Position numbers and translations under genes: made by a program
The notes under the pieces: model-generated
What the model was told of the DNA's origin: nothing
What the model saw: only the letters and a program-made list of their open reading frames with translations
Database searches by the model: none
Origin: a virus
Lineage: Duplodnaviria > Heunggongvirae > Uroviricota > Caudoviricetes
Virus record (IMG/VR): IMGVR_UViG_2534681663_000021
Coordinates: 1-11,078 of that record
DNA: 11,078 bases
Direction: 5' to 3' (one strand)
Shown here: positions 1 to 11,078 of the stretch, in pieces
How the letters are laid out: each line of letters opens with the position of its first letter
Numbering within the stretch: position 1 is the first letter of the stretch

Positions 1-1197
1 ATGGCTCTAACCGATATACAAATCAAACGCGCAAAACCACAAGACAAACCATATACAATGAATGATGGGCAAGGCTTGTCATTACTCATCAATCCAGACG
101 GCTCAAAGGGATGGCGATTCCGCTTTCGTTTTGCCGGTAAAGCGCGGTTAATGTCATTTGGTAGTTACGATCTTGTAAGCCTCGCGGAAGCACGTGAGAA
201 ACGCGATACGGCACGTAAACAGGTTGCAAACGGCATTGATCCAGCAGAAGAACGTAAGGCTCAGAAAATTGCTCAGAAATTATCAACTGAAAACTCTTTT
301 GAGGCCGTTAGCAGAGAATGGCATGCAACAAAAGCAGATCGCTGGACTTTAGCTTATCGCGAAGAAATTATTAAAACATTTGAACAGGATGTTTTTCCTT
401 TCATTGGTAAACGGCCAATAGCTGAAATTAAACCCCTAGAACTGCTTGAAGTTCTTAAACGCATAGAAAAACGTGGAGCGTTGGAGAAAACCAGAAAAGT
501 ACGTCAACGATGCGGAGAGGTGTTTCGCTACGCGATCATCACTGGCCGCGCTGAATACAATCCAGCACCTGATTTAGCTATCGCTCTGGCCGTTCCTAAG
601 CAAAAACACCACCCATTTTTATCTGCCGAAGAATTGCCTTATTTTATTCAAGATCTTGAAGCGTATACCGGAAGCATCATCACTAAAAATGCGACAAAAA
701 TAGTCATGTTAACTGGCGTAAGAACTCAGGAAATGCGCTTTGCCACGTGGGATGAAGTTGACCTTGAGAAAGGAATATGGGAGATTCCAGCTGAAAGGAT
801 GAAAATGCGCAGACCTCATATTGTACCTCTATCTACTCAGGTGATTGCCCTTTTTAAACAGCTCAAGCCTATTAGCGGCCATTATCCCTACATTTTTATA
901 GGTAGAAATAATCGTAGTAAACCTATATCTAAAGAAAGTGTGACACAGGTGATTGAGTTATTAGGCTACAAAGGTCGTGCAACAGGTCATGGGTTCAGGC
1001 ATACCATGTCAACCATTTTGCATGAAAAAGGATTCAATAGTGTATGGATTGAAATGCAATTAGCTCATGTAGATAAAAACACAATTCGAGGCACATATAA
1101 CCATGCACAATATTTAGAGAAAAGGAAAGAAATGATGCAATGGTATAGTGATAGATTATATCCGAAAATGAATATGGAGATATATAATGCACTTTAA
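1..1197 (+). CDS. int: P4-family tyrosine integrase (site-specific recombinase)
   Basis: 398-aa ORF starting MALTDIQIKRAKPQDKPY...GSKGWRFRFRFAGK, the N-terminal pattern of P4-type integrases. C-terminal catalytic region has GHGFRHT (HxxR box) and a downstream Tyr (NHAQY). Sits at the element edge, followed by cos, psu, delta, sid as in a P4 prophage. Confidence 0.9.
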   Translation: MALTDIQIKRAKPQDKPYTMNDGQGLSLLINPDGSKGWRFRFRFAGKARLMSFGSYDLVSLAEAREKRDTARKQVANGIDPAEERKAQKIAQKLSTENSFEAVSREWHATKADRWTLAYREEIIKTFEQDVFPFIGKRPIAEIKPLELLEVLKRIEKRGALEKTRKVRQRCGEVFRYAIITGRAEYNPAPDLAIALAVPKQKHHPFLSAEELPYFIQDLEAYTGSIITKNATKIVMLTGVRTQEMRFATWDEVDLEKGIWEIPAERMKMRRPHIVPLSTQVIALFKQLKPISGHYPYIFIGRNNRSKPISKESVTQVIELLGYKGRATGHGFRHTMSTILHEKGFNSVWIEMQLAHVDKNTIRGTYNHAQYLEKRKEMMQWYSDRLYPKMNMEIYNAL

Positions 1198-2143
1198 ATT
1201 CTACACAACGTTAAGATTTATGAATGTTATAGGGGATAATTTCGATGATTTTGACCTCCTTCCCGGAGTTACTCTAATAAGAGATAGGGCAAAAATTAGA
1301 AAAATAATTAACAAAGATATTAAGCCTTTTACTGGTATCATTGAATATGAACATTTATACAATGCAAATCACATAATTTTTGCCGATCTTAAAGATGATT
1401 TTTTTCAGCCGTCTACAAAAAGCAATTTTGCATTGACGACTTGGCTTTTGTGGATAGATATGCTTATAAATACTTCTTGGTTTATCAAGGATAATGGCAT
1501 GCTTTGCGAAATTGCATATTGCAATAAAACTGATCGCAAAGCATATTCCGAATGGTCGAACAATAGTCTATTAAGTTTATTTACGATGGCAAGCGGTTAT
1601 CGCCATATTGATGTTGAATTTAACAGGAGTGACTTAACTAAGTGGGCAGATATAAACCATCGAGTTCAAACTCACCTATATAATAATAACTCTACTATTT
1701 TTGATTCTTTTGTTGATTCAAAATATTCTCGCTATGGAAGGGCATTGAGTTTTATAAGATCAGCAAAGCGAGATTTCGATCCCGCAATGAAAATATCTCA
1801 CTACTGCAGCGCACTTGAGAGCTTATTCTCAACAGATAGCTCTGAACTTTCTCATAAACTTTCTGAGCGGGTCGCTATTTTCTTAAAACCATATAACTTT
1901 GATCCTATCACTACATTTGATGAAATAAAGTCATTCTATAACATTCGCTCTAAAGTTACTCATGGTGACAGTTTAAAATCATCTAAAGTTGGAAAACTAC
2001 CAGAGGAAAGCATTAAACTTGATAATTATTTAAGAGAAATAATGAATATAATAATAAACTCTGATGAGTTGATGGGTGTATTCAATGGTGATAAGGATAG
2101 CTTTGAAAGCTACTTCAAGAAAAAATTATTGCTTGGCATTTAA
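1187..2143 (+). CDS. AT-rich cargo protein of unknown function in the int-to-cos variable slot; candidate HEPN-like defence/abortive-infection protein
   Basis: 318-aa ORF whose ATG overlaps the int stop by 11 bp, with GGAG 7 nt upstream. Markedly AT-rich against a GC-rich backbone. C-terminal motif NIRSKVTHG is R-x4-H, flanked by predicted helical segments (ISHYCSALESLFS, LSHKLSERVAIFL). No homology search was possible. Confidence 0.6.
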   Translation: MHFKFYTTLRFMNVIGDNFDDFDLLPGVTLIRDRAKIRKIINKDIKPFTGIIEYEHLYNANHIIFADLKDDFFQPSTKSNFALTTWLLWIDMLINTSWFIKDNGMLCEIAYCNKTDRKAYSEWSNNSLLSLFTMASGYRHIDVEFNRSDLTKWADINHRVQTHLYNNNSTIFDSFVDSKYSRYGRALSFIRSAKRDFDPAMKISHYCSALESLFSTDSSELSHKLSERVAIFLKPYNFDPITTFDEIKSFYNIRSKVTHGDSLKSSKVGKLPEESIKLDNYLREIMNIIINSDELMGVFNGDKDSFESYFKKKLLLGI

Positions 2144-2168
2144 ATTGAAAATCATCCATTCGCGCGCA

Positions 2169-2187
2169 GTGCTTTCCCCGCCTCGCC
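2169..2187. other. cos site: P2/P4 19-nt cohesive-end sequence
   Basis: Plus strand reads GTGCTTTCCCCGCCTCGCC, the exact reverse complement of the P2/P4 cohesive end GGCGAGGCGGGGAAAGCAC. Located between the integrase-side cargo and psu, as in P4. Confidence 0.75.
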
Positions 2188-2287
2188 CGCCCGCTTTGCG
2201 GGGCGGTTTTAATGCAGTTGCACTGACACGCTCACGCCGCGTCGGGCGCGGCGTAATCTGCAGGAAATGAGGCGGGAAAACGCATGC

Positions 2288-2321
2288 AAAGCCATGCACC
2301 TTATCGATGCATGGCTTTTTT
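2288..2321 (+). terminator. Rho-independent terminator-like hairpin between cos and psu
   Basis: Perfect 11-bp inverted repeat AAAGCCATGCA / TGCATGGCTTT with a 9-nt loop, followed by a T run (GGCTTTTTT). An A run on the other side means it could act in both directions, also ending the psu transcript. Confidence 0.55.
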
Positions 2322-2351
2322 CAGTAAAAACAGGCGGATTTTCGGGGAATT

Positions 2352-2924
2352 TTACACAGACTGACGTGATGCCAGTTCTGCACTTTTACGCGAAAAAATC
2401 ATGTTCTGCGCAGGGGTGAATTTTTCACGGCTGTCATCCACCGAAGCCGCGTCAGGCCTGAATCCGATGGTCGTTAAAATGTCGCTATCCTGTGCGGAAT
2501 AATTAATTTTTTCACCCTTCGCAAGCCAGGACAGGAGGGCTTCACGCAAAGCATCTGTGGCACGCTGTATGGCACAGTTTCGGGCAATGGCCGTCAGCTC
2601 ACTGTAGCCCATCAGCTCCGGTGCCAGTGCGGCCGCCAGTGCTGTGCCGTGCTGCTGCATAAAATCATTCAGCCGCTCGCGGATGCTGATGTGCTGAACG
2701 GCTTCATGCGAACGAATATAACGACCGGCGGCCTGATTCACCTGCCATTTTCTGACTTCGATAATATTGCGTAATTCGTCCAGGCGGCTGACGTTTCTGC
2801 CTTCTCCTGACAGAAGCCGCAGATATTCCTGTTCGGCCGCTGCCAGCTCATTTTTGCGTTGCAGCCATGCCGCTTTGTTATTCTGGCAGACCTCAAAAGC
2901 CTGCTGTAATGACATTGTGGTCAC
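2352..2924 (-). CDS. psu: Polarity suppression protein Psu (capsid decoration / Rho antagonist)
   Basis: 190-aa ORF, matching P4 Psu in length. Sequence (MTTMSLQQAFEVCQNNKAAWLQRKNELAAAEQEYLRLL...) matches my recollection of P4 Psu. AGGAGA RBS upstream. Last gene of the sid-delta-psu late operon. Confidence 0.85.
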   Translation of the reverse strand: MTTMSLQQAFEVCQNNKAAWLQRKNELAAAEQEYLRLLSGEGRNVSRLDELRNIIEVRKWQVNQAAGRYIRSHEAVQHISIRERLNDFMQQHGTALAAALAPELMGYSELTAIARNCAIQRATDALREALLSWLAKGEKINYSAQDSDILTTIGFRPDAASVDDSREKFTPAQNMIFSRKSAELASRQSV

Positions 2925-2938
2925 ACCCCGTCTCCTGA

Positions 2939-3184
2939 TTAATGGTTGAATGGTGAGCTGTAACAGCCTTTAACTTTTCGGACAACAGCCGGTGCTGTGC
3001 TTGCCGGTGCTGGTTTTTCCTCCGTGACCGGAGAACGAATCACGGCACAAATTGACTCATGCGTTTTAAATGTCGCCGAACAGTAAATATTCTGGCACTG
3101 CAGATAACTTTCTTTGACATTGTCACTCACATACCGGCTGGTGCGAGTATGCGCTGAATGACGACAGAAAGGGCAGCGCATCAT
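2939..3184 (-). CDS. delta: Ogr/Delta-family zinc-finger late-gene transcriptional activator (single-domain form)
   Basis: 81-aa ORF MMRCPFCRHSAHTRTSRYVSDNVKESYLQCQNIYCSATF with the CxxC...CxxC zinc-binding pattern and strong similarity to P2 Ogr (MFHCPLCQHAAHARTSRY...CQNVNCSATF). Lies between sid and psu. Confidence 0.85.
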   Translation of the reverse strand: MMRCPFCRHSAHTRTSRYVSDNVKESYLQCQNIYCSATFKTHESICAVIRSPVTEEKPAPASTAPAVVRKVKGCYSSPFNH

Positions 3185-3914
3185 GACAGCAGTCCTCTGG
3201 CCTTAAGCACTGCTCCCTGCTGGTCTATTTTGTCCTGCCACACCTTGCGCTGTGCCGGTGTGCCTGCCACCTCATAATCCATGTGCGGGAGTGTTGCCGC
3301 TGACAGTCCGGTCAGCCGGAGAACCGGCTCGCCGGTGAGGCTGATTTGCATCTGTTTAATTTTCTGTTCCAGCGATGATTTCACCTGCTGCATGACAGCC
3401 TTTTCCGGTGCGACGTAGCCCTGATGGCCGGTGGTGTTGGCGAGCGGATTTTCCTGTACCAGAATGCTCAGATGCATTGCCCGGACAAGCGCCTCACAGG
3501 TTTCATTCAGGGCGTGTTCCAGCTCATGCTCTGCATACAGACTCAGAAGGTGATGATGTGCCTTCCGGTAGGCGGTGGCCGTGCTGTCACACGCCCCTTT
3601 CAGGCGTTCACGTTCGAAATTCAGCACCACGGCCAGATTGTCATATTCCTGTACCAGCTCCCGGCGTGCCACGCGCTCAATGTGGCGCTGTTTCAGCTCG
3701 TCGCTCAGGACACCACCGGCTGCACGAAAGGCGTGCGCCAGTCGTCAGCGTCGTTTCCGTCGGCCTGCGCCAGCGCATTTTTTTCCTGCTCTGCCCGTTC
3801 AATGGCCGTGACGGTCTCATCCATCAGGCGGGCGTTCTCAAGATGAGCGGCTCTGGCCTTTTCCAGTTGTGCCAGTGCGGGTTGCAGATATTCAGGGATG
3901 GTGTTGTCAGACAT
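3181..3914 (-). pseudogene. sid: sid (external scaffold / capsid size determination) interrupted by a 1-bp frameshift
   Basis: Two minus-strand ORFs: 3705-3914 (MSDNTIPEYLQPALAQLEKARAAH...DDWRT, GAGGAG RBS 7 nt upstream of the ATG at 3912-3914) and 3181-3744 in another frame (AFRAAGGVLSDELKQRHIERVARRELVQEYD...). Together they reconstruct a ~244-aa Sid-like protein if one base is restored near 3730-3735. The total length is one base short of an intact 245-codon gene. Confidence 0.7.
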
Positions 3915-3948
3915 TTTCCGGCTCCTCGTCACTTCAGGTTAAGAAAAT

Positions 3949-3966
3949 TGTGACGTACACCGGACA
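3949..3966. promoter_or_regulatory. TGT-N12-ACA dyad, candidate Delta/Ogr activator site for the divergent late promoters (sid-proximal)
   Basis: TGT at 3949-3951, 12 nt, ACA at 3964-3966. TGT-N12-ACA is the conserved element of P2/P4 late promoters. It would sit near -18 of a minus-strand sid promoter or near -55 of a plus-strand late promoter. Confidence 0.55.
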
Positions 3967-3986
3967 ACAACACGACGCATTGCAGA

Positions 3987-4004
3987 TGTGCCAGCCCTGA
4001 CACA
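3987..4004. promoter_or_regulatory. Second TGT-N12-ACA dyad, candidate Delta/Ogr activator site (about -55 of the sid promoter)
   Basis: TGT at 3987-3989, 12 nt, ACA at 4002-4004; 38 bp from the first dyad. The centre lies about 55 bp upstream of a plausible sid transcription start near 3940. Confidence 0.55.
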
Positions 4005-4083
4005 GGAGACTCATCCTCAGACCGGCAAGCCAGGAAAAGGTCGCAGGAAAAACCGGCTTACTGTTTGTTTTTTTATATTTTAC

Positions 4084-4187
4084 TGTTCACCTCTGTTCAC
4101 CATAAGAAAAAAGATAAGTAATACAGTAAGTTAAAGGGTGAACAATCGCAGTAATGACTGTTCACCGTCTGTTCACCACTGTTCACC
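4084..4187. repeat. ori-like iteron cluster: six copies of the octamer TGTTCACC / GGTGAACA (likely alpha-protein binding sites)
   Basis: TGTTCACC at 4084-4091, 4094-4101, 4159-4166, 4170-4177 and 4180-4187; inverted copy GGTGAACA at 4137-4144. The same octamer recurs downstream of alpha (crr), matching the P4 ori/crr pair about 4.5-4.8 kb apart. Confidence 0.75.
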
Positions 4188-4249
4188 CGTTGATGGGATT
4201 TTTGTGCTGTTTATTACTTTTTATTTTTATTAATTCACTGAAATAAATA

Positions 4250-4285
4250 AGAAAAAACAATTTGTATTTCACTATAATTTTTTCC
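4250..4285 (+). promoter_or_regulatory. Candidate early promoter (P_LE-like) for the alpha operon
   Basis: Perfect -10 hexamer TATAAT at 4273-4278 in an AT-rich tract; the -35 is weak. It is followed by a ~180-nt untranslated leader before the first ORF at 4466. Sequence-only prediction. Confidence 0.3.
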
Positions 4286-4465
4286 AGCTCCTTCCAGAGC
4301 GTTTTAAAGCTATCTGGCGCTGATGTACAAAAAACGCACAGTCATTGTAAGGCTGCCGGAACAAATCCCCCCTGTTGCGTCTGCCAAAAATATTCACAAA
4401 ATAAAGCGCTACCCGAAGCCGGACGGACTTATCCGGTGCTGTATGGACATTAACGAGGTAGCCCG

Positions 4466-4732
4466 ATGCAAGCTGTTTTTTCTTCCCCGTCTCCCGCCCC
4501 TGTGACGCCACTGATGCCGCTGCCGGACATCACGCAGGAGCGTTTTTTACGTCTGCCGGAAGTGATGCACCTGTGCGGCCTGTCACGCTCGACCATCTAC
4601 GAATTCATCCGTAAGGGGGAATTTCCGCCGCAGGTGAGTCTTGGCGGTAAAAATGTGGCCTGGCTGCACTCTGAAGTCACCGCATGGATGGCCGGGCGCA
4701 TTGCCGGACGCAAACGGGGGTACGACGCATGA
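4466..4732 (+). CDS. AlpA-family (phage) transcriptional regulator, HTH
   Basis: 88-aa ORF with [50 protein letters not shown], the AlpA/prophage-regulator HTH signature. GAGG RBS 8 nt upstream. Matches P4 orf88 in length. Confidence 0.8.
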
Positions 4733-5328
4733 TGATGCCTGTTCTGCAAAAAGTCCCTTTTTCTGGCTTGCCTTTTTCCGGCATTTGCGGATATAGTTTT
4801 TCCGCTGCCGCAAAATCGGCAGCCGGGCGTGAGAACCCGAGCAATCTAACGGCGACATATGACGCGCCATGCGTCTTTTTTTGTGTCGCAATCAACGCCA
4901 CAGAGCGCCAGATTATGGTGTGGTGTGTGGTCAGTCGTGCAGATGGCATTCCGTGCATCCTGCCCGCGTCCGCTCATTATGCCGCAGAGTCAATGGTAGC
5001 TCAGGCGGGGCAGCCTCCGGGCTGGCCGGTATCCGTTAGAGCCGGTATTCTCACCCCCGTCTGGGCTATCGCCATCGAGCGTGAGAACTCCGGCGATAGC
5101 GTAACCTGCTATCTAACGGAGGCTGCCATCATGGCTACAACCCTTACCACCTCACACCCTGAATTTGTCTTTGTGTTTGCGGCTGTCCGTCGCGCAGACC
5201 GTCATCCCCGTATCTGTATGCTTCGCACCGTCGCCGGTGATGAACGCAGCGCCCGCCGTTCCCTTGTCCGTGACTATGTGCTCTCCCTTGCTGCCCGTCT
5301 GCCGGTGGTGGAGGTGTCCCGTGCGTAA
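4729..5328 (+). CDS. Hypothetical protein (199 codons), alpha-operon gene
   Basis: ATG overlaps the stop of the AlpA-like gene (ATGA coupling), and its stop overlaps the next start. Length matches P4 orf199. GC-rich region, so coding status rests on operon context only. Confidence 0.5.
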
Positions 5329-5608
5329 TAAAAAAGCCCCTCAGACCGTCTCAGCACGTCATGACGCCCGTGAACACCTCAGCATTGAGGCTTACCATAA
5401 GCTCAACCGCGCCAGCGCCGTATCCCGGTTTGTTGGGGGTGATTTGATTCACCGTGAACTCTCCGGCCTGCATCAGCTCTACATTCCGCATATTTTCAGC
5501 TACCTGAATGAAGATATTGATTTTGTGCTGAATGAGCTGAAAGCCAAAGGCCTGTGCCGCGATTTTCTCGCCCAGCAGAAAGACCGGGGAGACAGGACGC
5601 ATGTTTGA
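5321..5608 (+). CDS. Hypothetical 95-aa protein; possibly the epsilon-like (helper prophage derepression) gene
   Basis: GTG start with GGAGG 6 nt upstream; overlaps the preceding ORF's stop by 8 nt and the next ORF's start. The 95-aa length and position before the 151/106-codon ORFs and alpha fit P4 epsilon, but the identity was not verified. Confidence 0.4.
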
Positions 5609-6056
5609 TTTTCCCCAGCCCGGTGAGATTTACCGTTCTGCCGGTTTTCCCGATGTGGCCGTGGTCGGCATTCTGGAAGACGGTATTCCGTGGGAAATGC
5701 CGTACCGCTGCCCGGACATTGTCTGGAATCCGTACCACCGTAAATTCAGTATCCTTGTGCGTATCCTCGCTGACGGGCGCACCACAGACATCCCGCTGGG
5801 GCGTTTTCTGCGGGAATTTACCTGTGACCGTCCTGACCTGTTTAAACGCAGCCCCGTAAACCGGCATGCGGTACTGAAAGAAATGGCCGGAGACCCGGAA
5901 TTACAGAAATGGCGGGAGAAATATCTGGATATTTACCCGCAGGACCCTGTTCCGGTCAGCCGGGCGGCACCGGTGGAGCGGGAATGGCGGGAAATTCCCC
6001 GCACGGAGCCTGACCCGGAAATCACCCCGGATAACAGTTACCGCAATTATCTGTAA
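5601..6056 (+). CDS. Hypothetical protein (151 aa), alpha-operon gene
   Basis: ORF starting [18 protein letters not shown] with a GGGAGA RBS, translationally overlapping the upstream ORF. Length matches P4 orf151. Confidence 0.6.
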   Translation: MFDFPQPGEIYRSAGFPDVAVVGILEDGIPWEMPYRCPDIVWNPYHRKFSILVRILADGRTTDIPLGRFLREFTCDRPDLFKRSPVNRHAVLKEMAGDPELQKWREKYLDIYPQDPVPVSRAAPVEREWREIPRTEPDPEITPDNSYRNYL

Positions 6057-6191
6057 TTAAAAAACGACACCCGAAAAATTAAATGTGCGTATTCGCGCAG
6101 GGATACGCACGTCTTCAGGAGACGCAGATATGCCTTATCAGTTAATGCAACCGGCACGGAATGCAGTCATCTGTCACAGGGAGGAAAACAA

Positions 6192-6512
6192 ATGAAAACA
6201 CCCTTACCGCCCGCCTTACGCGCTGCCCTTTACCGTCGCGCTGTCGCCTGTGCCTGGCTGACCGTGTGCGAACGTCAGCACCGCTACCCGCATCTCACCC
6301 TTGAATCACTGGAGGCGGCCATCGCCGCTGAGCTGGAAGGCTTTTATCTGCGCCAGCACGGTGAGGAAAAAGGGCGCCAGATAGCCTGTGCCCTGCTGGA
6401 AGATTTAATGGAATCCGGCCCCCTGAAGGCCGCGCCGTCGCTGTCCTTTCTCGGGCTGGTTGTGATGGATGAACTCTGTGCCCGTCACATAAAAGCGCCG
6501 GTACTGCACTGA
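6192..6512 (+). CDS. Hypothetical protein (106 aa) immediately upstream of alpha
   Basis: [22 protein letters not shown]... with a GGGAGG RBS 8 nt upstream. Length and position match P4 orf106. Confidence 0.6.
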
Positions 6513-6526
6513 AGGAGAACAACACC

Positions 6527-8860
6527 ATGAAAATGAACGTAACCGCCACCGTCAGCCATGCGCTCGGCCACTGGCCGCGTATTCTCCCGGCGCTGGGGAT
6601 TCAGGTGCTGAAAAACCGTCATCAGCCCTGTCCGGTCTGTGGCGGGAGTGACCGCTTCCGTTTTGATGACAGGGAGGGGCGCGGCACCTGGTACTGCAAT
6701 CAGTGTGGTGCCGGTGACGGCCTGAAACTGGTTGAAAAGGTGTTTGGTGTCTCCCCGTCCGACGCGGCCGCAAAGGTGGCTGCCGTGACCGGCAGTCTGC
6801 CCCCGGCTGACCCGGCAGTGACGGCCGCCGCCGTTGCTGAAACAGACGCTGCCCGGAAGAACGCCGCCGCACTGGCACAAACCCTGATGGCGAAAACCCG
6901 TCCCGGAACCGGTAACGCCTACCTGACCCGCAAGGGCTTTCCCGGCCGGGAATGCCGGATGCTGACCGGCACACACAGAGCCGGTGGCGTGAGCTGGCGC
7001 GCCGGTGACCTTGTGGTGCCACTGTATGACGACAGCGGCGAACTGGTTAACCTTCAGTTAATCAGTGCTGACGGCCGTAAGCGCACCCTGAAAGGCGGAC
7101 AGGTCAGGGGCACCTGTCACACCCTTGAAGGACAGAATCAGGCCGGAAAACGTCTGTGGATAGCGGAGGGATACGCGACCGCACTTACCGTGCATCACCT
7201 GACCGGTGAAACGGTGATGGTGGCGCTTTCTTCCGTGAACCTCCTTTCTCTGGCCAGCCTTGCCCGGCAGAAGCATCCGGCCTGTCAGATTGTCCTTGCC
7301 GCAGACCGTGACCTCAGCGGTGACGGCCAGACAAAAGCCGCCGCAGCCGCAGATGCGTGTGAGGGCGTTGTTGCCCTGCCGCCGGTCTTCGGTGACTGGA
7401 ATGATGCCTTCACGCAGTACGGCGGGGAGGCCACCCGTAAGGCCATTTACGATGCCATCCGGCCACCGGCTGAAAGCCCGTTCGACACCATGAGCGAAGC
7501 AGAGTTTTCCGCCATGAGTACCAGCGAAAAGGCCATGCGTATCTATGAGCATTACGGCGAGGCGCTCGCGGTCGATGCCAACGGCCAGCTTCTGTCCCGC
7601 TATGAAAATGGTGTCTGGAAGGTGCTGCCGCCACAGGACTTTGCCCGGGATGTGGCCGGGCTGTTTCAGCGTCTGCGCGCGCCGTTCTCCTCCGGGAAGG
7701 TGGCCTCCGTGGTGGACACCCTGAAGCTGATTATTCCGCAGCAGGAAGCCCCATCCCGCCGCCTGATTGGCTTTCGTAACGGCGTGCTCGACACGCAGAA
7801 CGGCACGTTCCACCCGCACAGTCCGTCACACTGGATGCGCACCCTGTGCGATGTGGATTTCACCCCGCCGGTGGACGGTGAAACGCTGGAAACCCACGCC
7901 CCCGCGTTCTGGCGCTGGCTTGACCGTGCTGCCGGTGGTCGTGCGGAAAAACGCGACGTGATTCTGGCCGCACTGTTTATGGTGCTGGCAAACCGCTACG
8001 ACTGGCAGCTCTTTCTGGAGGTGACCGGTCCCGGCGGCAGCGGCAAAAGTATCATGGCCGAAATAGCCACCCTGCTGGCCGGGGAGGATAACGCCACGTC
8101 GGCCACCATCGAGACGCTGGAATCCCCGCGTGAACGTGCCGCGTTAACTGGCTTCTCACTGATACGCCTGCCGGACCAGGAAAAATGGAGCGGCGACGGT
8201 GCCGGACTCAAGGCCATCACCGGCGGCGACGCGGTGTCCGTTGACCCGAAATACCGGGATGCGTACTCCACGCATATCCCGGCGGTAATTCTGGCCGTGA
8301 ACAATAACCCGATGCGCTTCACCGACCGCAGCGGCGGCGTGTCACGCCGGCGGGTGATTATTCACTTCCCGGAACAGATAGCCCCGCAGGAGCGCGACCC
8401 GCAGCTTAAGGACAAAATCACCCACGAGCTGGCGGTCATCGTGCGTCACCTGATGCAGAAGTTCAGCGACCCGATGCTCGCCCGGTCACTGCTTCAGTCC
8501 CAGCAGAACTCAGACGAGGCGCTGAACATCAAACGGGATGCCGACCCGACGTTTGATTTTATCGGCTATCTGGAAACCCTGCCGCAGACCAGCGGCATGT
8601 ATATGGGGAACGCCAGTATCATCCCGCGCAATTACCGTAAATACCTCTATCACGCCTATCTGGCCTACATGGAGGCAAACGGCTACCGGAATGTACTCAG
8701 TCTGAAAATGTTCGGACTGGGGCTGCCGGTGATGCTGAAGGAATACGGGCTGAATTACGAGAAGCGCCATACCAAACAGGGGATACAGACCAACCTGACG
8801 CTGAAAGAGGAAAGCTACGGCGACTGGCTGCCAAAATGTGACGACCCTGCAACAGCCTGA
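6527..8860 (+). CDS. alpha: Alpha protein: bifunctional primase-helicase with origin-binding C-terminus
   Basis: 777-aa ORF, matching P4 alpha in length. N-terminal zinc ribbon (CPVCGGSDRF...YCNQCGAGDG), TOPRIM-like acidic motifs (LWIAEGYATA; VLAADRDLSGDG), Walker A P-loop (TGPGGSGKS). AGGAGA RBS. Flanked by the TGTTCACC iterons it should bind. Confidence 0.9.
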   Translation: MKMNVTATVSHALGHWPRILPALGIQVLKNRHQPCPVCGGSDRFRFDDREGRGTWYCNQCGAGDGLKLVEKVFGVSPSDAAAKVAAVTGSLPPADPAVTAAAVAETDAARKNAAALAQTLMAKTRPGTGNAYLTRKGFPGRECRMLTGTHRAGGVSWRAGDLVVPLYDDSGELVNLQLISADGRKRTLKGGQVRGTCHTLEGQNQAGKRLWIAEGYATALTVHHLTGETVMVALSSVNLLSLASLARQKHPACQIVLAADRDLSGDGQTKAAAAADACEGVVALPPVFGDWNDAFTQYGGEATRKAIYDAIRPPAESPFDTMSEAEFSAMSTSEKAMRIYEHYGEALAVDANGQLLSRYENGVWKVLPPQDFARDVAGLFQRLRAPFSSGKVASVVDTLKLIIPQQEAPSRRLIGFRNGVLDTQNGTFHPHSPSHWMRTLCDVDFTPPVDGETLETHAPAFWRWLDRAAGGRAEKRDVILAALFMVLANRYDWQLFLEVTGPGGSGKSIMAEIATLLAGEDNATSATIETLESPRERAALTGFSLIRLPDQEKWSGDGAGLKAITGGDAVSVDPKYRDAYSTHIPAVILAVNNNPMRFTDRSGGVSRRRVIIHFPEQIAPQERDPQLKDKITHELAVIVRHLMQKFSDPMLARSLLQSQQNSDEALNIKRDADPTFDFIGYLETLPQTSGMYMGNASIIPRNYRKYLYHAYLAYMEANGYRNVLSLKMFGLGLPVMLKEYGLNYEKRHTKQGIQTNLTLKEESYGDWLPKCDDPATA

Positions 8861-8867
8861 CCCACCT

Positions 8868-8892
8868 GACCGGCATCTGCCGGTCTTTTTTT
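8868..8892 (+). terminator. Rho-independent terminator downstream of alpha
   Basis: GACCGGCA-TC-TGCCGGTC hairpin at 8868-8885 followed by seven T (8886-8892), eight bases after the alpha stop codon. Confidence 0.7.
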
Positions 8893-8910
8893 ATCCCTGA
8901 ATTCCCCGAA

Positions 8911-9002
8911 GGTGAACAATCCACTGTTCACCCTTCACCGTATATTAACCCGTTATCACACTGAAATTAAAAGAGAAAAATGAAAGGTGAACAGTGTGAA
9001 CA
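8911..9002. repeat. crr-like (cis replication region) iteron cluster
   Basis: GGTGAACA at 8911-8918 and 8986-8993, TGTTCACC at 8925-8932, degenerate TGTGAACA at 8995-9002. Same octamer as the ori cluster, located just 3' of alpha as in P4. Confidence 0.7.
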
Positions 9003-9271
9003 ATCAAATCAAAAAAACTTTCTACTCCCACTATAGCCTGACTGGTCGTCTCCAAAACGAGCGGAAAAGCATCAACAATGAATAGTTAACTGTTAACTCC
9101 GCGCCAACTCATTACCACTTAACTCAATGATATTAAATGGAAAACTATCGAAATGAATACTCTGCAAAATTAAATGCAAAAAAATATATGCCAGTCAAAT
9201 TTCGTTACGCACTCTCTTCCAAGAAAGAGATAAATGCTTTATACGTCCACCATACTATGTTATTTTTTTAA

Positions 9272-9412
9272 TACGGCTCTGCCTTAAATCTGTGAGGTTG
9301 TTTCGCCTCGAAGTATCTTATGTTAGCACATCACGCTACCAATCAGCGGTTAGTTACTTGACGTAACTGTTAATTGGCTAAAGTTTGCATAGAGTGATTG
9401 GGCGGAGCCGTA
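9272..9412 (+). ncRNA. Candidate retron msr/msd non-coding RNA, bounded by an a1/a2-like inverted repeat
   Basis: 12-bp inverted repeat with one mismatch: TACGGCTCTGCC (9272-9283) and GGCGGAGCCGTA (9401-9412), ending 35 nt before the RT start codon. Internal hairpins at TGAGG...CCTCG and AGTTAC-TTGAC-GTAACT. Spacing and position resemble retron ncRNAs; nothing else supports it. Confidence 0.25.
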
Positions 9413-9446
9413 AATTTAGTCCATAAATACAGTAACGAGGTAGAGA

Positions 9447-11078
9447 GTGTCTTTACATGACAAGCTACTGATGCTTAGTCTCAATTCGGCGAATAAAGAA
9501 GAAGATGAGACAATCCCGGAGTTACCTAAGTTAGAGCCTCAGCCCTATCAAGCTGGAAATAAGTTGAAATGGGATAATAAAGAGCTGAAAAATCAGCCCA
9601 TCACTTCAAAGAATGACATTAATGTAATATGCAAAAAAATTGAAAACAAAAGCATTGTAATTACATCAGCAAACGATGTAGCCAATCTGTTAGAAGTCCC
9701 GGTCGGACAATTATTATTTATTTTATATAATAAAAAAGATAACTATAGAACTTTTGAAATAAAAAAGAAAAATGGAAAAAGTAGAATCATAAATGCACCT
9801 CAAGGCGGTTTATCAATTCTGCAAGAGAAATTAAAGCCAGTTCTTGAGTACTTTTATCGTCCCAAAAAACCAGCACATGGATTTATTAAGGATAAAAGTA
9901 TATTAACAAATGCAGAAAAACATACAAAGAAAAAATATGTTGTTAATGTAGATTTAGAAAATTATTTTGGTTCAGTCACTTTCGCTAGAGTATATGGGAT
10001 ATTTAAAAGTAAGCCATTTAATTTCTCTCATCCTGCGGCGAGTATATTAGCTCAACTATGTACTAAGGATGGAAAATTACCTCAAGGAGCATGTACCTCC
10101 CCTGTTCTAGCAAATTTAGCATCAGCCTCACTCGATAAACACCTAACCCAACTGGCACGTAGAAAAAACATCACATATACAAGATATGCAGATGATATTA
10201 CTTTTTCATTTAATCAACGACAAGTCAGAGAAATCATAACGCTAGATAATGAAAATAATTTTGAATTGGGCGAGGCGATTATCTCTGTGATAGAGAAAAG
10301 TGGCTTCAGCATAAACACAAGTAAATTCAGAGTTCAGAAAAGAAATGAACGTCAAAAAGTTACTGGTCTAGTGGTAAATGAAAAAGTAAATGTTGAGCGT
10401 AAATATCTTAGAGTTACTCGTTCATTAGTTCATAAATGGAGAGAAGACAAGTTAACATCAGCATTGTTGTTTGTTACTAAAAAAGGTTTTAAGGCAACAA
10501 ATAACGAACATGCTATATCAATTTTTCGCAATCATATTTATGGGCGATTGAGTTTTATAAAAATGATCCGTGGTGAGGACTTCCCGTTATATCTTAAATT
10601 AATGGCTGAAATGAGTCATCATGATCCTTTAAAAACAAAAGAAGGGCTTAGAGCAATGAAAGAAACTGAAACTTACGATGTATTTATTTGTCATGCAAGC
10701 GAAGATAAAACATCCATCGCAATTCCAATTTACGAAGAATTAATTAAATTAAATATATCAACATTCATAGATCATGTTGAAATAAATTGGGGCGATTCAT
10801 TAATCCAAAAAATTAACTCAGCTCTTGTAAAGTCTAAATATGTAATTGCCATTCTTTCGGCTAATTCTGTAGATAAACATTGGCCTAAGAAAGAATTGCA
10901 TTCTGTGCTTGCAAGAGAAATCACTGAAGGTGAAGTAAAATTACTTACTCTTGTAAAAGAAGCAGATGAAGCAATAGTTGCTGAATCTTTGCCGCTCTTA
11001 AGTGATAAGCTTTATATGACCTATAAAGATAATCCGGCAGAAGTTGCAGATAAGGTTCGTGCGCTTTTAAACAAGTGA
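9447..11078 (+). CDS. Reverse transcriptase (retron-type motifs) fused to a C-terminal TIR domain
   Basis: 543-aa AT-rich ORF. RT motifs: NAEKH (NAxxH) followed by YVVNVDLENYFGSV, LPQGACTSPVLANL, RYADDITF (YxDD), KVTGLVVNE (VTG). C-terminal ~130 aa: YDVFICHASEDK...YVIAILSANSVDKHWPKKELHSVLA, a TIR-domain signature that includes the candidate catalytic Glu in KKEL. Confidence 0.85.
   Translation: MSLHDKLLMLSLNSANKEEDETIPELPKLEPQPYQAGNKLKWDNKELKNQPITSKNDINVICKKIENKSIVITSANDVANLLEVPVGQLLFILYNKKDNYRTFEIKKKNGKSRIINAPQGGLSILQEKLKPVLEYFYRPKKPAHGFIKDKSILTNAEKHTKKKYVVNVDLENYFGSVTFARVYGIFKSKPFNFSHPAASILAQLCTKDGKLPQGACTSPVLANLASASLDKHLTQLARRKNITYTRYADDITFSFNQRQVREIITLDNENNFELGEAIISVIEKSGFSINTSKFRVQKRNERQKVTGLVVNEKVNVERKYLRVTRSLVHKWREDKLTSALLFVTKKGFKATNNEHAISIFRNHIYGRLSFIKMIRGEDFPLYLKLMAEMSHHDPLKTKEGLRAMKETETYDVFICHASEDKTSIAIPIYEELIKLNISTFIDHVEINWGDSLIQKINSALVKSKYVIAILSANSVDKHWPKKELHSVLAREITEGEVKLLTLVKEADEAIVAESLPLLSDKLYMTYKDNPAEVADKVRALLNK

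Follow-up and report, generated by a model that had tools for sequence, protein, structure and literature searches.

A type XII (RT-TIR) retron as probable cargo between crr and the attachment site of a P4-like satellite prophage in selC

Type XII retrons (Retron-TIR) provide antiphage defense, for which the domain fused to their reverse transcriptase (RT) is required (Mestre 2020, PMC7736814, citing Gao 2020). Mestre 2020 (PMC7736814) also describes NAXXH and VTG as retron-specific motifs and lists the RNA structure of type XII as "nd" (not determined), and a 2026 survey carries type XII without a validated model of the msr and msd parts of its RNA. According to a commentary on Gao 2020 (PMC7699616), both the synthesis and the structure of multicopy single-stranded DNA (msDNA) were required for defense by the retrons tested, including Retron-TIR. 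Among satellites, a previously reported P4 retron was located in the psu-int/cos hotspot by Rousset 2022, in which only the psu-int interval was analyzed, and De Sousa and Rocha (PMC8628076) delimited their elements by int and the furthest core gene, which is alpha in the usual order. Because these two surveys stop at psu-int or at the stretch from int to alpha, cargo located beyond alpha lies outside both. Here, we analyzed a stretch of viral DNA of 11,078 nucleotides (positions 1 to 11,078 of IMG/VR record IMGVR_UViG_2534681663_000021; hereafter, the window), which we identify as a P4-like satellite prophage integrated in selC (tRNA-Sec). The analysis was centered on the interval 9003-9446, which lies directly ahead of a gene for an RT with a fused TIR domain (RT-TIR). 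This interval very probably comprises the tail of the crr region followed by the front of a type XII retron, whose cassette (i.e., an RNA gene plus the RT-TIR gene) would be satellite cargo placed between crr and the P arm of attP.

The position of the retron relative to the ends of the satellite was derived from near-identical genomes. A total of 14 complete Escherichia coli genomes carry the region 8800-11078 at 98.7 to 99.9% identity, and in every complete E. coli genome with the retron in the collection (14 intact copies and 1 truncated by IS5) the satellite is located at selC. In the E. coli locus L002, the 22-bp 3' end of the tRNA-Sec gene (GACTCCTGTGATCTTCCGCCAA; attL) occupies 5026-5047, which is 162 bp upstream of the window start, and a second 22-bp copy (attR) occupies 16972-16993, 693 to 714 nt past the position matching the last base of the window. 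When the tRNA is joined to what lies right of the distal repeat, a reconstructed empty site of 355 bp results; other E. coli strains contain it uninterrupted at 100% identity, and in 2488 genomes at least 80% of its length is covered in one place. Because the empty site is intact in other strains, the segment of 11,946 bp between the repeats represents one insertion, with RT-TIR inside it. An earlier reading, made from the letters of the window alone (hereafter, the sequence-only reading), had remarked that the window starts at the int ATG with attL outside and had considered a second cargo site for RT-TIR inside the satellite, between crr and attR; both points agree with the attL and attR positions given above, the latter beyond 11078. 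It had proposed a comparison of empty sites and a search for a repeat of the tRNA 3' end; the selC attB is contiguous, and 22-bp repeats flank the element.

The distribution of integrase-binding motifs gives the same picture. L002 has only five exact copies of the arm motif ATGTGTATA (i.e., two beside attL, of which one overlaps the int ATG; one at 14 nt after the RT-TIR stop; and two just before attR), and we assign these copies as integrase arm-type sites. In the satellites of Salmonella, Citrobacter, and Yersinia, tandem arm repeats follow the RT-TIR stop by 13 to 25 nt, and a tRNA-Sec core follows 60 to 70 nt later. The basic order, as deduced from these loci, is therefore alpha, terminator, crr, retron, P arm, and att core. 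The attR cores of L087 (9285-9305, Salmonella), L099, and L101 (~7737-7760, Yersinia) carry 1-nt deletions or substitutions relative to the tRNA-Sec 3' end, which may reflect immobilized elements or species differences in selC. The arm site over the int start lies on the minus strand at L002 5202-5210 (window positions -7 to 2) and has a counterpart in P4 (L003 2971-2982), which hints, by analogy, at the same integrase autoregulation as in P4.

The RT-TIR gene product is the RT of a type XII retron. It matched the PADLOC model RT-TIR_XII over almost the full length of the model (2.1e-192, residues 67 to 542) and the NCBIfam equivalog NF042941 (Retron_TIR_antiphage; 677.8 bits, with a cutoff of 600), and the motif residues N155, A156, and H159 (NAXXH), Y247, A248, D249, and D250 (YADD), and V305, T306, and G307 (VTG) are invariant in an alignment of 21 sequences (A2). 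The TIR domain is C-terminal to the RT, and all relatives carry PF01582/PF13676. The RefSeq start of the gene is the same GTG as that used here (Table 1).

Just upstream of this gene, an inverted-repeat search detected a 12-nt inverted repeat (TACGGCTCTGCC/GGCGGAGCCGTA), and the 141 nt that it encloses have a minimum free energy of -50.8 kcal/mol (z = -4.2). A scan of genome contigs for RT-TIR relatives yielded, among the matches listed, distant relatives only; close enterobacterial loci were taken one by one, with their flanks, and their RT-TIR amino acid identities to the window are 96% (Salmonella), 81% (an island), 74% (metagenomic contig L091), 72% (an Edwardsiella prophage), 70% (an Erwinia P4-like element), and 67% (a Providencia P2-like prophage). 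The inverted repeat of 12 to 13 nt is kept at a fixed spacing in seven loci, with compensatory changes in the Edwardsiella copy. In an alignment of 10 sequences (A5), 97.6% of the cells pair (13-bp closing stem plus 8-bp 5' hairpin), and compensatory changes occur in 12 of the 21 pairs (10 of 13 in the closing stem), a level reached by none of 500 shuffles; slid controls stayed at ~40%. A covariance model built from seven loci (R1) matched seven further loci, including two pairs that are near-identical, in each case directly upstream of an RT-TIR gene. These matches came from Neiella, Pseudoalteromonas, and an Oceanospirillaceae metagenome-assembled genome (46 to 48% protein identity), as well as from Citrobacter, Erwinia tasmaniensis, and Yersinia, and the model had zero matches in the retron-less elements P4, L004, and L005. 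All 10 RNAs fold with both the closing stem and the 5' hairpin, which frame a variable middle rich in hairpins. Terminal inverted repeats, a conserved 5' hairpin, and a variable middle together constitute the anatomy of an msr-msd RNA, and since the G-U pairs are invariant, the transcribed strand is the plus strand, which is also that of the RT gene. We thus identify the 141-nt segment, on the basis of its conserved fold, as the msr-msd RNA gene of a type XII retron; it is the main functional element of the interval and had not been recognized in the sequence-only reading.

In the mechanism that we propose, the RNA fold is the part backed by tool results, and the other steps are taken from established retron and TIR biology. 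The retron RNA would be transcribed from its own promoter, and its ends would pair as the 13-bp stem. The RT would dock on the conserved 5' hairpin, prime from the 2'-OH of a guanosine near the stem, and copy the variable middle into msDNA. The complex of RT and msDNA would then keep the fused TIR domain silent until it is disturbed by an infecting phage, whereupon the released TIR domain would degrade NAD+ and the infection would be aborted.

The backbone of the satellite extends further into the interval than had been thought. The last intact crr iteron ends at 9002, by the sequence and the P4 annotation. The sequence-only reading took 9003 as a sharp boundary between backbone and cargo, which does not hold: 9004-9184 is still crr backbone, and the step in identity occurs at ~9200. 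The segment 8400-9029 of the window is 97.5% identical to phage P4 (X05623), for which the alpha terminator, crr, and the iterons are annotated, and the predicted terminator of the window (t-alpha) agrees with the annotated one within this stretch. In a multiple alignment, the window from 9004 to ~9190 matches the spacer and second repeat of L004 and L005 (P4-like elements at other E. coli sites); the pairwise alignment of 9004-9190 with the spacer and repeat 2 of L004 has 72% identity and a score of 71, compared with -35 +/- 6.7 for shuffled sequences. The identity between window and Salmonella relative is ~0.8 through alpha and crr, 0.89 at 9061-9210, and ~0.95 from ~9211. Because crr homology ends at ~9190 and the identity to Salmonella rises at ~9200, we place the junction between backbone and cassette near 9185-9210 rather than at 9003.

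The second crr repeat of the window is decayed and is 61% identical to the window's own repeat 1. Its iterons have changed from GGTGAAGA to AATGAATA, from TGTTCACT to TGTTAACT, and from GGTGAACAGTGTGAACA to AATGAATACTCTGCAAA, and the second crr repeat of the Salmonella element (L087) is decayed in like manner. The tandem GTTAACT GTTAACT had been located correctly (9085-9098), and its suggested role as a junction or operator does not hold: it occupies the expected place of the iteron pair GGTGAAGA-N6-TGTTCACT and is the relic of that inverted pair. A tandem 7-mer of this kind arises in ~3% of shuffles. A concentration of the decay on the iterons was considered and set aside; a hand count from the pairwise alignment gave changes at 14 of 40 iteron positions and at ~39 of 151 positions elsewhere. 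Since this enrichment is not clear, the changes are better described as a general decay that reaches every iteron. The AT-richness of the region had also been noted and is real, but its onset does not fall within a few bases of the last iteron. The GC content drops directly after the alpha terminator, ~115 bp before 9003, from 0.61 in alpha to 0.348 in crr repeat 1 (8886-9017), 0.33 to 0.36 at 9018-9271, and 0.33 in the RT gene, and it is 0.39 in the crr-att region of P4. Because the drop precedes 9003 and the P4 region is also AT-rich, AT-richness is a trait of the backbone and not a mark of foreign DNA.

Past ~9190, no homology to retron-less P4-like elements was found, and the junction segment between the decayed repeat and the RNA gene (Table 1) probably carries the upstream part of the retron promoter. 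Conservation across unrelated contexts begins ~20 nt ahead of the inverted repeat, at a TATGNT box; TATGNT/ATGGTA stands at a constant distance in seven loci from different genomic contexts, and sequences further upstream diverge. The TATGTT of the window is accordingly a candidate for the -10 element of the retron promoter. Three other features of this part were rejected as functional elements. The sequence-only reading had proposed a 7-bp hairpin near 9211-9229 as a junction or operator, and the stem has instead 6 bp (TCTCTT-N6-AAGAGA, 9213-9230); three such hairpins are present in the interval, with 0.87 expected (p ~0.1), one of the three being the tip of the template hairpin of the retron RNA. 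The stem has no compensatory change in Salmonella, where one pair becomes G-U and one is broken, and it is not above chance. An 11-nt inverted repeat (9210-9220/9439-9449; 10 of 11 positions complementary) brackets the proposed promoter and the RNA gene and overlaps the Shine-Dalgarno sequence and GTG of the RT gene; it is confined to the E. coli/Salmonella lineage, is absent elsewhere, and is probably due to chance. A 44-amino-acid open reading frame (ORF) at 9137-9271, which ends at the RNA stem, was considered as a small gene and has no corresponding ORF in Salmonella L087.

Beyond the window, the E. coli loci carry a remnant of a second satellite. The sequence after RT-TIR is homologous to the P arm of the simple form (i.e., that without a remnant) up to ATAAGA/TTCCT (first core bases), where the retron satellite's own att core is cut after ~5 nt. 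There follow the 3' third of an alpha gene, from ~codon 645, with an internal deletion and a stop codon, and then another t-alpha, one crr repeat, a P arm that is intact, and attR. From exactly that junction point, the distal part is matched by "empty" selC satellites whose alpha is intact, and the downstream structure is common to 14 of 14 E. coli genomes and to the IS5-truncated copy of strain ES4. The most economical reading of these sequences is that the alpha remnant is what is left of two satellites in a tandem or cointegrate arrangement whose middle was lost; pseudogenized tandem P4-like elements were noted by De Sousa and Rocha (PMC8628076). The junction lies at a CCT microhomology between att core and alpha, a position compatible with illegitimate recombination as well as with an event mediated by the integrase at a secondary site. 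In Erwinia persicina, an alpha fragment with another breakpoint comes after the retron and the selC-type arm repeats and is succeeded by crr and then by a P4/leuX-type arm and core, a case that we interpret as analogous to that of E. coli but independent. Separately, in the ES4 copy (L006 4875-7327; CM184348), IS5 splits RT-TIR and leaves a 263-amino-acid ORF with TIR only; the alpha remnant and the attR side are kept, and the remainder of the satellite is gone. The E. persicina element (L092 6633-7360; CP082141) has selC-type arms ATGTGTATATTAATGCGTATAAGG after the retron and terminal P4/leuX-type arms and core TTTGAGTCCGGCCTTCGCACCA and is a hybrid of two att systems.

Three other explanations were weighed against a retron carried as cargo inside the satellite. 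The RT-TIR gene could belong to a separate island stacked beside the satellite at selC, with the real attR being a degenerate site within 9003-9270. It is true that this region is AT-rich and follows crr, that the P4 att site lies ~194 bp downstream of crr, and that a satellite remnant is stacked at the selC locus; the last point bears out one half of the stacked island considered in the sequence-only reading, with the difference that the remnant lies to the right, beyond the window, and does not include RT-TIR. Nevertheless, a search of the window for the tRNA-Sec att core that allowed up to 3 mismatches found nothing, the interval 9003-9446 contains no exact arm-type site, and ARAGORN predicted tRNAs neither in the window nor in six related loci, which accords with the earlier failure to find a tRNA-like sequence or att repeat in the interval and leaves an attR within 9003-9270, which would put RT-TIR outside the satellite, with neither a core nor an arm site. 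In addition, 9004-9190 is homologous to the crr spacer and repeat 2 and not to an att region, arm sites and a tRNA-Sec core follow RT-TIR in four genera, and the empty site joins the tRNA straight to the sequence right of the distal repeat. We therefore give a stacked island almost no credence. Another explanation takes the proposed RNA gene as an ordinary 5' leader of the RT-TIR mRNA (i.e., an attenuator or translational regulator) rather than as a template for msDNA. The element lies on the coding strand, 34 nt upstream of the start codon, no conserved priming G abuts its stem, and it has no Rfam family; a scan of the whole window with Rfam (E up to 1) found the P4 immunity RNAs only and nothing in 9003-9446. 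A leader of this kind is nonetheless highly unlikely, given the retron RNA architecture (12- to 13-nt terminal inverted repeats, conserved 5' hairpin, and fast-evolving middle), the retron-specific NAXXH and VTG motifs in the protein (Mestre 2020), the match to the curated Retron_TIR equivalog, and the msDNA requirement reported for the tested retrons, including Retron-TIR (PMC7699616).

The third explanation concerns the E. coli layout, which could have arisen by a single-crossover (Campbell-type) insertion of a circle carrying the retron and alpha-3'/crr, with no tandem pair and no deletion. Direct repeats of alpha-3' and crr flank the cassette at 90 to 93% identity, the retron of Erwinia is also followed by a similar alpha remnant, and E. 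coli and Salmonella share 95% identity in the cassette versus ~80% in the backbone, which fits recombinational exchange. However, the left end of the alpha fragment abuts the P arm and the first att-core bases, as expected of a complete satellite end and not of a simple circle; the simple form, without a remnant, is found in three genera; and the alpha breakpoints differ (~codon 645 in E. coli and ~codon 705-712 in Erwinia). We consider this route improbable, if still deserving of some weight; were it true, the direct repeats of ~450 bp would let the cassette loop out and move between satellites. A tandem pair with a lost middle is retained here as the origin of the remnant, and the retron as cargo between crr and the P arm. 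Several points weigh against this overall interpretation. The location of attR rests on near-identical genomes, and the window itself ends at the RT stop. No invariant G directly follows the closing stem among the ten RNAs; the best priming candidate is G9294 (a G in 9 of 10 sequences), and G9292 is not conserved. A generic scan for sigma-70 promoters and terminators called no promoter ahead of the RNA gene, and msDNA production, the promoter, the priming G, and the defense activity are what we infer for this locus. The origin of the alpha remnant was reconstructed from end products only, with tandem integration plus deletion and recombination with a circle as the competing routes.

The assignment of the window to a P4-like satellite is based on its ORF map, Rfam matches, and the RefSeq annotation of the near-identical E. 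coli loci L001 and L002. The P4-like core set is present in its order (int, psu, delta, sid, alpA, an epsilon/Icd-like gene, the alpha primase, and the immunity RNA), and alpha scored 108.9 bits with TIGR01613 (cutoff, 108.7). The retron is placed outside the psu-int hotspot, after alpha and crr, and the satellite has two separate cargo loci, with a HEPN-annotated ORF at psu-int and the retron at crr-attP. The HEPN ORF had no PADLOC match and no NCBIfam match. In L001 (CP080235), an IS66 element (tnpA, tnpB, and tnpC; 6857-9445) lies between sid and alpA in an element that is otherwise 99.9% identical; this insertion is present neither in the window nor in L002.

Table 1. Features of the window, with positions counted from its first nucleotide
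Feature	Position	Strand	Remarks
int	1-1197		Window begins at int ATG
HEPN-annotated ORF (318 amino acids)	1187-2143	+	Classical psu-int cargo locus; 11-nt overlap with int stop
psu, delta, sid		-	
P4-type immunity RNAs	4791-5076	+	Rfam C4 antisense RNA, 74.5 bits; isrK, 72 bits; c4-a1b1 target, 49.5 bits
alpha (primase) gene	6527-8860		
Predicted Rho-independent alpha terminator (t-alpha)	8868-8895	+	Stem GACCGGCA/TGCCGGTC, then T run
crr 120-bp repeat 1	8897-9017		Type I iterons intact; P4 X05623 homology and alignment A1
Iterons of repeat 1	8911-8918; 8925-8932; 8986-9002		GGTGAACA; TGTTCACC; GGTGAACAGTGTGAACA, respectively
Inter-repeat crr spacer (backbone)	9018-9063		Aligns with spacer of P4-like L004 and L005
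Decayed second crr repeat	9064-9184		All iterons mutated
Junction segment	9185-9255	+	Common only to Salmonella retron-bearing satellite; holds 6-bp hairpin
-10-like hexamer TATGTT	9256-9261	+	10 nt upstream of RNA closing stem
Predicted msr-msd RNA gene	9272-9412	+	141 nt
Closing stem (13 bp)	9272-9284 with 9400-9412		
5' (msr) hairpin	9290-9298 with 9305-9313		Loop UGUUUC
Hairpin within the variable middle (template, msd)	~9340-9378		Hairpin
Invariant GTGATTGG	9394-9401		
Shine-Dalgarno sequence GAGG	9437-9440	+	6 nt before GTG start of RT-TIR gene
RT-TIR gene	9447-11078	+	543 amino acids; stop is last codon of window

The cassette is not confined to the E. coli satellites. The retron recurs at crr-attP in selC-type P4-like satellites of five enterobacterial genera, across which RT-TIR identity (57 to 96%) and alpha identity (59 to 84%) do not track each other, and in the comparison of E. 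coli with Salmonella conservation is higher in the cassette than in the backbone, which points to exchange by recombination. In a P2-like prophage of Providencia, an RT-TIR retron with 67% identity is located between the replication gene gpA and the portal gene, a position that we read as the P2 cargo hotspot. The cassette (RNA plus RT-TIR) follows gpA in this prophage (L093 2546-8370, Providencia vermicola), and it also adjoins the integrase end of another small island and lies at one end of an Edwardsiella prophage (L088/L089), so that in L093, L088, and L089 it is at or adjoins an end of a mobile element. As a part of a mobile satellite, the RT-TIR gene is expected to travel along with it, if a helper phage still mobilizes the element. 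A terminator scan of the plus strand from the RT-TIR stop to the arm sites (L002 16279-16300) found none, the next terminator being the second t-alpha (16686-16703). In an excised circle, attP and int would lie in the direction of retron transcription, and cargo transcription in this direction, without a terminator, could couple the transcription of defense genes to the expression of the integrase.

Taken together, these results correct the annotation of 9003-9446 to a decayed replication repeat and a retron RNA gene instead of a junction. The system is an ordinary one, and the finding is largely explained: the retron type is known, and so are satellites that carry retrons (phiR73; Rousset 2022). 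In the literature that could be searched, we did not find the crr-attP cargo position or a covariation-backed fold of the type XII RNA. Both are modest additions that leave the understanding of retrons and satellites unchanged, and the fold could aid annotation and retron engineering. It is doubtful that the gap between crr and the P arm is a general, uncatalogued cargo or defense hotspot of P4-like satellites that also receives other systems; if it were, surveys limited to the stretch from int to alpha would have missed it.

Compared with the type XII Retron-TIR systems of Mestre 2020, the locus is alike in its RT with NAXXH, YADD, and VTG, its C-terminal TIR domain, and its single gene with an upstream RNA; the protein is no different in kind, and the covariation-backed fold is an addition rather than a departure. 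The retronphage phiR73, to judge from the titles of cited work, is likewise a P4-like satellite at the tRNA-Sec gene with a retron (Ec73) as cargo. The window shares with the crr-attP region of P4 the order of alpha, terminator, crr with type I iterons, AT-rich spacer, tandem arm repeats, and att core. It differs from P4 in its type of integrase and att site (selC for the window and leuX for P4) and from phiR73 in its type of retron, as Ec73 is not known to be an RT-TIR. P4 has two intact 120-bp crr repeats (~60 bp apart) and ~117 bp from crr to the first arm repeat, whereas repeat 2 of the window has no intact iterons and a retron of ~2.0 kb occupies the gap between crr and the P arm. With respect to the P4 retron of Rousset 2022, the psu-int locus of the window holds the HEPN ORF, and the retron is at the other end, at crr-attP. 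Thus, the locus resembles the psu-int hotspot of P4 (Rousset 2022) and the P2 hotspots in carrying an antiphage system as exchangeable satellite cargo and differs from them in where that cargo is located.

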